The notes below the pieces were generated by a model. The model searched no databases. It had not been told where the DNA came from and saw nothing but the letters and a program-made list of their open reading frames with translations. Position numbers and translations under genes: made by a program. Of a stretch of 64,000 nt of DNA, positions 52,105 to 52,372 are shown in pieces (the first letter of the stretch is position 1; every line of letters begins with the position of its first letter). Location of the stretch: the NCBI RefSeq assembly GCF_003334815.1, contig NZ_QOWO01000001.1. One strand, given 5' to 3'. Origin of the DNA: Escherichia coli (GTDB lineage Bacteria; Pseudomonadota; Gammaproteobacteria; Enterobacterales; Enterobacteriaceae).

Positions 52105-52175
52105 ATAAAAAAAGGGCCTAAAGCCCAGTTATTCTGTAGTCAGATAACAAAAAACCCCGATAAATCGGGGCTTTA
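52105..52175 (-). terminator. Two hairpin+T-run elements between metY and rimP (partial terminator/attenuator)
   Basis: Minus-strand gggctttaggccc + T-run and ccccgatttatcgggg + T-run. Confidence 0.55.
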
Positions 52176-52295
52176 TATAACTGAACCCTATAACCGCAAC
52201 TGCGGTCTGGAGCACTTTCCAGAAGGATTTTTTCAAATCCCACTACGAAGGCCGAAGTCTTCACAGTATATTTGAAAAAGGACTCTAAGGGAAAG

Positions 52296-52372
52296 TGGTT
52301 GCGGGGGCCGGATTTGAACCGACGACCTTCGGGTTATGAGCCCGACGAGCTACCAGGCTGCTCCACCCCGCG
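52296..52372 (-). tRNA. metY: Initiator tRNA-fMet
   Basis: Minus strand reads CGCGGGGTGGAGCAGCCTGGTAGCTCGTCGGGCTCATAACCCGAAGGTCGTCGGTTCAAATCCGGCCCCCGCAACCA; CAU anticodon; encoded CCA. Confidence 0.95.

Follow-up and report, generated by a model that had tools for sequence, protein, structure and literature searches.

The metY-rimP region of the E. coli chromosome

The window analysed here, a stretch of 64,000 nucleotides, is part of the Escherichia coli chromosome. Over the 1.2 kb around the leader of rimP (1201 nt), it shares 100% identity with many E. coli chromosomes, and each of the 5,426 complete E. coli genomes searched contains a match. According to the RefSeq annotation of an identical genome, the minus strand carries the genes for tRNA-Met, rimP, nusA, infB, rbfA, truB, rpsO and pnp; argG diverges from this operon on the plus strand, from 52720. 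The first protein gene of the operon, rimP (51637..52089, minus strand, 150 aa), appears both in the list of open reading frames and in that annotation. On its 3' side lies nusA (50122..51609, minus), itself followed by infB (47425..50097, minus). Homologs of the rimP product contain the Pfam domains RimP_N and RimP_C. On the minus strand, a spacer of 206 nt separates the tRNA gene from rimP.

The tRNA gene (52296..52372, minus) is metY, an initiator tRNA gene as the earlier note had proposed; it encodes tRNA-fMet with a CAU anticodon. ARAGORN reports it as tRNA-Met(CAT), and the Rfam tRNA model scores it at 61.4 bits. It has all the hallmarks of an initiator: a C1xA72 mismatch, flagged at the first acceptor pair in the Rfam alignment, three consecutive G-C pairs at the base of the anticodon stem (GGG/CCC) and the CAU anticodon, the whole anticodon arm being UCGGGCUCAUAACCCGA. 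The MG1655 ortholog is annotated as metY, 'tRNA-initiator Met(CAU)'. Over the 421 nt compared, from the promoter to the rimP start, the sole difference from MG1655 lies at tRNA position 46 (52327 in the window), which is G here (tRNAfMet1 type) and A in K-12 (tRNAfMet2). The allele found here agrees with that of E. coli B/MRE600, whose metY is also G46 and of the tRNAfMet1 type (Brandi et al. 2019, PMC6511841). Of the 5,426 complete E. coli genomes, just 365 match the exact K-12 allele plus flank (93 nt) with an identity of at least 99%; the matches listed are mostly laboratory K-12 derivatives.

Upstream of metY, gene order differs between genera. The pair secG-leuU precedes metY by about 55-60 nt in Yersinia, Edwardsiella, Xenorhabdus, Dickeya, Serratia, Photorhabdus and Tatumella (loci L083-L089). 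The E. coli chromosome has argG (52720-54063, plus) and yhbX (54071-55729, minus) between leuU (56155-56241, minus) and metY. An insertion may be behind the divergent argG/metY promoter region of E. coli, which is unlike those of the seven genera.

At the other end of the spacer, the translation initiation region of rimP (52086..52106, minus) consists of a G-rich Shine-Dalgarno sequence, GGGGGUGGG, and a TTG start codon at 52089..52087, consistent with the RefSeq CDS end at 52089. It is invariant across the Enterobacterales compared. Many RimP database entries are 187-209 aa long rather than 150 (homologs P0002-P0048). These long entries are probably an annotation artefact, the TTG start being missed by gene callers and the ORF extended upstream, through the leader and its terminators. 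A 9-codon mini-ORF (52077-52106, minus; AUG UCU UGG GGG UGG GCU UGU CCA CAU UAG) overlaps the rimP TTG out of frame, with its ATG at 52106, right after the U-run of the second terminator described below. Its AUG is changed to ACG or AUU in 4 of 56 relatives and it has no Shine-Dalgarno sequence; it is probably not functional.

Promoters, RNase III stem and tandem terminators

Two promoters precede metY and constitute the top matches of our promoter scan. P-1 (52465..52494, minus) scores 12/12, with TTGACA at 52494..52489 and TATAAT at 52470..52465, separated by an 18-nt spacer. P0 (52388..52417, minus), just 5' of metY, scores 9/12, with TTTGCA at 52417..52412 and TAGAAT at 52393..52388. Both agree with the core sequences printed by Brandi et al. 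(2019, PMC6511841), who place P-1 and P0 upstream of metY and a third promoter, P2, downstream of it, and who describe RNase III processing sites in the region. From the core sequence printed in the same study, P2 is located inside the metY-rimP spacer (core at about 52285..52258, minus), with its -10 box TATACT at 52270..52265 and transcription starting at about 52258.

P2 is embedded in a long stem-loop, UUUUUCAAAU...AUUUGAAAAA (52229..52279, minus; z -2.1 on folding), which also carries an RNase III site at about 52259. This site was mapped to MG1655 position 3318176, equivalent to 52259 in the window, by Gordon et al. (2017, PMC5371410), and its product resembles the P2 transcript. To clone the rimP 5'UTR, Adams et al. 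(2021, PMC7815308) used a primer that begins at ACTTCGG. P2, the RNase III stem and the conserved, predicted helix that competes with the second terminator, presented below, are spacer features absent from the earlier note.

That note had described two hairpins with T-runs between metY and rimP. We find both of them in a terminator scan, in an Rfam family match and in related genomes, and they bear names in the literature: Brandi et al. [quoted passage not shown]

Terminator t1 (52149..52174, minus) is made of the stem AAAGCCCCGA / UCGGGGUUUU, closed by a UUUA loop and followed by a U6 run that extends to 52149. The consensus terminator scan reports it as AAAGCCCCGATTTATCGGGGTTTT (52174..52151) then TTGTTATC, with this same stem and loop, then UUG. 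With 10 pairs (5 G-C), a 4-nt loop and U6, it has the GC-rich stem, short loop and U-tract of an intrinsic terminator. Terminator t2 (52107..52126, minus) has the form GGGC(U)-loop-(G)GCCC with a U7 run at 52113..52107. The scan reports it as GGGCTTTAGGCCC (52126..52114) then TTTTTTT, or GGGCU-UUA-GGCCC as RNA. Its 5 pairs (4 G-C), 3-nt loop and U7 correspond to the same architecture.

RNA folding, which the earlier note had suggested as a check, bears out t1 and leaves t2 undistinguished. Folded alone, t1 reaches -14.6 kcal/mol (z -4.28), and 0 of 200 shuffled sequences fold as well. For t2 alone, the values are -7.4 kcal/mol and z -0.89; 40 of 200 shuffles are as good, so its energy is no better than theirs. 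In equilibrium folds, t2 is displaced by a helix that encloses t1. Nor does the region hold significantly more terminator-like sites than shuffled sequence (5, versus 3.0 +/- 1.9). While t1 stands on its own, the reality of t2 rests on a match to RF01770, on a stem and U-run invariant in 35 of 35 distinct Enterobacterales sequences and on its name in the literature. Between the two terminators, folding places a further spacer hairpin, GUUAUCUG-ACUA-CAGAAUAAC (52128..52148, minus), that overlaps the 3' arm of the enclosing helix. In a 35-sequence alignment, 88.5% of its cells are paired, with weak covariation.

The Rfam family RF01770, 'Gammaproteobacteria rimP leader', matches 52207..52107 on the minus strand over its full length (model 1-102 of 102), with 102 bits against a gathering threshold of 47 and an E-value of 5.8e-18. 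Its two consensus helices coincide exactly with t1 and t2: CCCg...cGGG comes first and GGGc...gCCC second, each with a U-run. The match stops 17 nt short of the TTG codon of rimP, in the genome of a gammaproteobacterium, E. coli.

Other readings of the same sequence were rejected. A 48-aa ORF with a GTG start (52264..52118) runs across the leader; in relatives, indels in the A-run and in the spacer break its frame. On the plus strand, sub-threshold matches to STnc430 (26.6 bits versus 47) and to the reversed rimP leader (23.6 bits) are driven by the palindromic t1, and no plus-strand gene converges on the metY-rimP spacer. A match to RsmY (19 bits versus a threshold of 57) corresponds to the terminator hairpin only.

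Conservation of the leader and a predicted alternative helix

The layout tRNA, leader, rimP is seen in all of the 87 Enterobacterales loci examined. Relatives of RimP were recovered by a scan from 80 Enterobacteriaceae species; in the majority of these 80 loci, the 3' end of tRNA-fMet, a CCCCG...CGGGG hairpin and a GGGC...GCCC-U7 hairpin stand at approximately fixed distances from the rimP start. Searched as exact strings, the tRNA 3' end is missed in 4 loci and the t1 pattern in 5; those t1 misses that are seen in the alignments are due to a single C-to-U change that keeps the pairing. In twelve other Enterobacterales loci, RF01770 scores 84-103 bits at the equivalent position, and all of them have a tRNA-fMet upstream of it. 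Eight more genera have the order tRNA-fMet, RF01770 (84-103 bits), rimP, namely Yersinia, Edwardsiella, Xenorhabdus, Dickeya, Serratia, Photorhabdus, Tatumella and Sodalis. The comparative set as a whole is confined to Enterobacterales.

Among the 87 sequences, the leader (AGGG box to start codon) has a mean pairwise identity of 92.7%, with 52 of 103 columns invariant. The tRNA-proximal spacer reaches 70.3% (11 of 246 columns) and the third codon positions of rimP 66.3% (15 of 150 columns); first and second codon positions of rimP stand at 96.4%. The conserved part (52090-52190, minus) takes in loops and unpaired spacers, such as UUUUUUGUUAUCUGAC and AUGUCUUGGGGGUGGG, and lies near the nonsynonymous level of rimP. 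Two hairpins alone would not require this degree of conservation, which hints at further constraints, for instance that an alternative helix forms, that a protein makes contact or that the Shine-Dalgarno sequence is occluded.

In the alignment of 35 sequences, 98.9% of the cells of t1 are paired, and its changes are one-sided and pair-preserving. In t2, the invariant part comprises the 4-bp stem and the U-run, and the loop is variable. No compensatory covariation was found for either terminator, the stems staying invariant even after the addition of Yersinia, Serratia, Edwardsiella, Dickeya, Xenorhabdus, Photorhabdus, Tatumella and Sodalis; covariation therefore neither supports nor contradicts t1 or t2. 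A small hairpin just upstream, ACCGC-AGUU-GCGGU (52193..52206, minus), shows compensatory double changes at 5 of 5 pairs in the 35 Enterobacterales sequences. It sits at the 5' end of the RF01770 match, where the Rfam consensus is unpaired.

The helix that displaces t2 in the folds is predicted to pair a conserved box, UAGGGUUCAGUUAU (52190..52177, minus), with AUAACUGGGCUUUA (52132..52119, minus). It would enclose t1 and sequester the 5' arm of t2, which makes the box a candidate antiterminator of t2. It is conceivable, if on balance doubtful, that the leader is a structural switch and not two independent leaky terminators, a factor such as NusA or RimP picking the conformation. In such a switch, the box AGGGUYCAGU (52189..52180) together with ACUGGGCU (52130..52123) would enclose t1 and mask the 5' arm of t2, so that transcripts escaping t1 would be spared t2; the 3' arm of t2, freed in this way, would pair with the Shine-Dalgarno sequence of rimP. 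Several observations point in this direction. The enclosing helix belongs to the minimum-free-energy structure of every construct having both arms (z -4.8 to -5.9), and its 8 core pairs form in at least 97% of the 35 sequences, 11 of which have one-sided changes from U.G to C-G; at a peripheral pair, 3 sequences have double changes. AGGGUYCAGU is invariant in the 35 Enterobacterales sequences, though part of neither terminator, and the leader is conserved almost like nonsynonymous sites, loops and spacers included. Conformers with t2 on and t2 off lie within +/-3.5 kcal/mol of each other in 35 species, and in the fold of the full leader the 3' arm of t2 does pair with the rimP Shine-Dalgarno sequence. 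A potential antiterminator structure was also noted in the gammaproteobacterial form of the leader by Naville & Gautheret (PMC2965389).

These authors, however, tie the antiterminator to the upstream terminator, t1, and not to t2. Both arms of the enclosing helix are invariant, which leaves its core without compensatory covariation. Near-equal conformer energies are expected of many sequences, and are compatible with a switch while proving nothing; equilibrium folding moreover disregards the co-transcriptional order. For t1 itself, folding of transcripts that end inside the terminator showed no competing upstream structure that could serve as its antiterminator (z about 0). A wider version of this model, in which the Enterobacterales rimP leader would be a conserved bistable RNA that couples t1 read-through both to the t2 decision and to translation at the TTG codon, with NusA or RimP possibly in control, seems to us unlikely.

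Read-through into rimP and probable control of the operon

The earlier note had read the hairpins as partial terminators, with attenuated read-through into the rimP operon, and the position of the promoters supports it. P-1, P0 and P2, mapped by their printed sequences, all lie upstream of t1, hence of both hairpins, and the promoter scan finds no promoter-like site between t2 and rimP. On this geometry, rimP, nusA and infB can be expressed through read-through alone, and the hairpins would have to be partial terminators.

We consider it highly probable that the region is the 5' control region, an attenuator, of the E. coli metY-rimP-nusA-infB-rbfA-truB operon. Its identity is given by 100% identity over 1201 nt together with the annotation of metY, rimP, nusA and infB, by RF01770, and by the promoters, the conservation and the geometry. 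In the mechanism that we favour, transcription would start at P-1 or P0, upstream of metY, or at P2 within the spacer. RNase III would cut the long stem just past the tRNA, releasing the tRNA precursor and leaving an mRNA 5' end near the P2 start. Every transcript would then meet the tandem intrinsic terminators, t1 with its strong hairpin and U6, and t2 with its weak GGGC/GCCC hairpin of 4-5 bp and U7, and the polymerases that read through both would alone express rimP, nusA and infB. Since NusA, itself encoded by the operon, promotes hairpin-dependent termination, the t1/t2 pair would act as a negative-feedback attenuator. We infer that NusA acts at t1 and t2 specifically, and that the predicted alternative helix may modulate t2. 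Brandi et al. (2019, PMC6511841) describe the operon as regulated by its own product NusA, and transcripts of the operon rise in mutants with reduced NusA termination, according to citations of Bylund 2011 in PMC6511841 and a similar statement in PMC4448216. Antitermination mediated by Csp proteins at these sites is disputed by Brandi et al. (2019, PMC6511841). The leader would set the dosage of NusA, IF2, RimP, RbfA and TruB, core factors of transcription, translation and ribosome assembly, and tie it to the initiator tRNA gene.

Published transcript ends bear on t1. Supplementary file 2 of Adams et al. (2021, PMC7815308) lists MG1655 position 3318065 on the minus strand, equivalent to 52148 in the window, the G right after the U6 of t1. 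In DirectRNA-seq, this breakpoint has 4269 reads upstream and 196 downstream in untreated cells, a ratio that overstates the efficiency of termination as the 800-nt upstream window takes in the abundant tRNA; with bicyclomycin, the reads are 3527 and 481. The curated Term-seq 3' ends of the same study contain, among the entries retrieved, that of metY (3318213) alone in the spacer and none at t1 or t2, and the tables examined hold no 3' end for t2. Of the transcript 3' ends on which the earlier note had made its reading depend, there is thus a coverage breakpoint at t1, absent from the curated Term-seq set, and nothing at t2.

The breakpoint at t1 could in principle have another origin than intrinsic termination, either Rho-dependent termination or processing and trimming by exonucleases as far as a stable hairpin; we regard this as very unlikely. 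Adams et al. (2021, PMC7815308) do file position 3318065 under Rho termination regions (Rho score 2.97, p = 1.3e-38), bicyclomycin having raised the downstream reads 2.97-fold, and processing in the metY-rimP spacer, by RNase III among others, is on record. Yet t1 is a canonical GC-rich hairpin with U6, the breakpoint coincides exactly with the end of its U-run, and the effect of bicyclomycin could be indirect. In the same study, expression of a fusion carrying the rimP 5'UTR and ORF decreased, rather than increased, in a rhoR66S mutant; an indirect effect through NusA availability is a conceivable source of this discrepancy with the Rho score. Hardly credible, to our mind, is the view that the hairpins merely end the metY transcription unit, with rimP-nusA-infB expressed independently and no attenuation involved. 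A terminator after a tRNA gene is a common arrangement, and the dominant Term-seq signal of the region is the tRNA 3' end. The geometry contradicts this view nonetheless: P2, the sole promoter downstream of metY, is still upstream of both hairpins, nothing promoter-like was found between t2 and rimP, and the hairpins, located 122-189 nt past the tRNA, keep close to the rimP start, at a constant distance across 80 species.

The leader is already known: it is a classical control region with tandem terminators, curated as RF01770, and the present analysis reveals nothing new about what it is. The element described by Naville & Gautheret (2010, Genome Biol 11:R97, PMC2965389) is the same, with two hairpins and U-runs right upstream of rimP. 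Its consensus structure has these two hairpins alone, and differs in that respect from the present analysis, where the enclosing helix and the upstream covarying hairpin are seen in addition. The same authors present the rimP-leader as the most widespread attenuator, with NusA as its proposed effector, and note that the gammaproteobacterial form adds a second, upstream terminator of inverse motif. In E. coli, t1 and t2 go back to Ishii et al. 1984 and Regnier & Grunberg-Manago 1989, who dealt with the same locus, promoters and RNase III site as summarised in Brandi et al. (2019, PMC6511841).

In general rimP-leaders, including those of Firmicutes and the terminator in the rimP 5'UTR of S. agalactiae (PMC2965389; PMC4448216), a single GGGc...gCCC hairpin with a U-run is present; it corresponds to t2 here. 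Negative feedback by NusA has been proposed for them as well (PMC2965389; PMC4448216). They differ from the E. coli leader in their single hairpin, without a t1 upstream of it, and in not being linked to an initiator tRNA gene. In their treatment of the analogous Streptococcus agalactiae terminator, Rosinski-Chupin et al. (2015, PMC4448216) cite the proposal of NusA feedback in E. coli. The NusA-dependent intrinsic terminators of B. subtilis (Mondal et al. 2016, as cited in PMC8060035) have suboptimal hairpins, and t2 is likewise weak with its 4-5 bp; that set was defined genome-wide by NusA depletion in another phylum.

Several other structured RNAs are recognised by Rfam in the window. Just 3' of infB, whose ORF ends at 47425, naRNA4 (nucleoid-associated RNA 4) is matched at 47338-47408 (minus) with 68 bits. 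RNase P RNA (rnpB) lies at 1985-2361 (minus), the SraG sRNA at 45310-45481 (plus) and the ribosomal protein S15 leader at 45711-45825 (minus). The Enterobacteria greA leader, RF01769 (62894-63015, minus), seen here from its Rfam match alone, is like RF01770 a curated cis-regulatory leader, of unrelated sequence and located upstream of greA.
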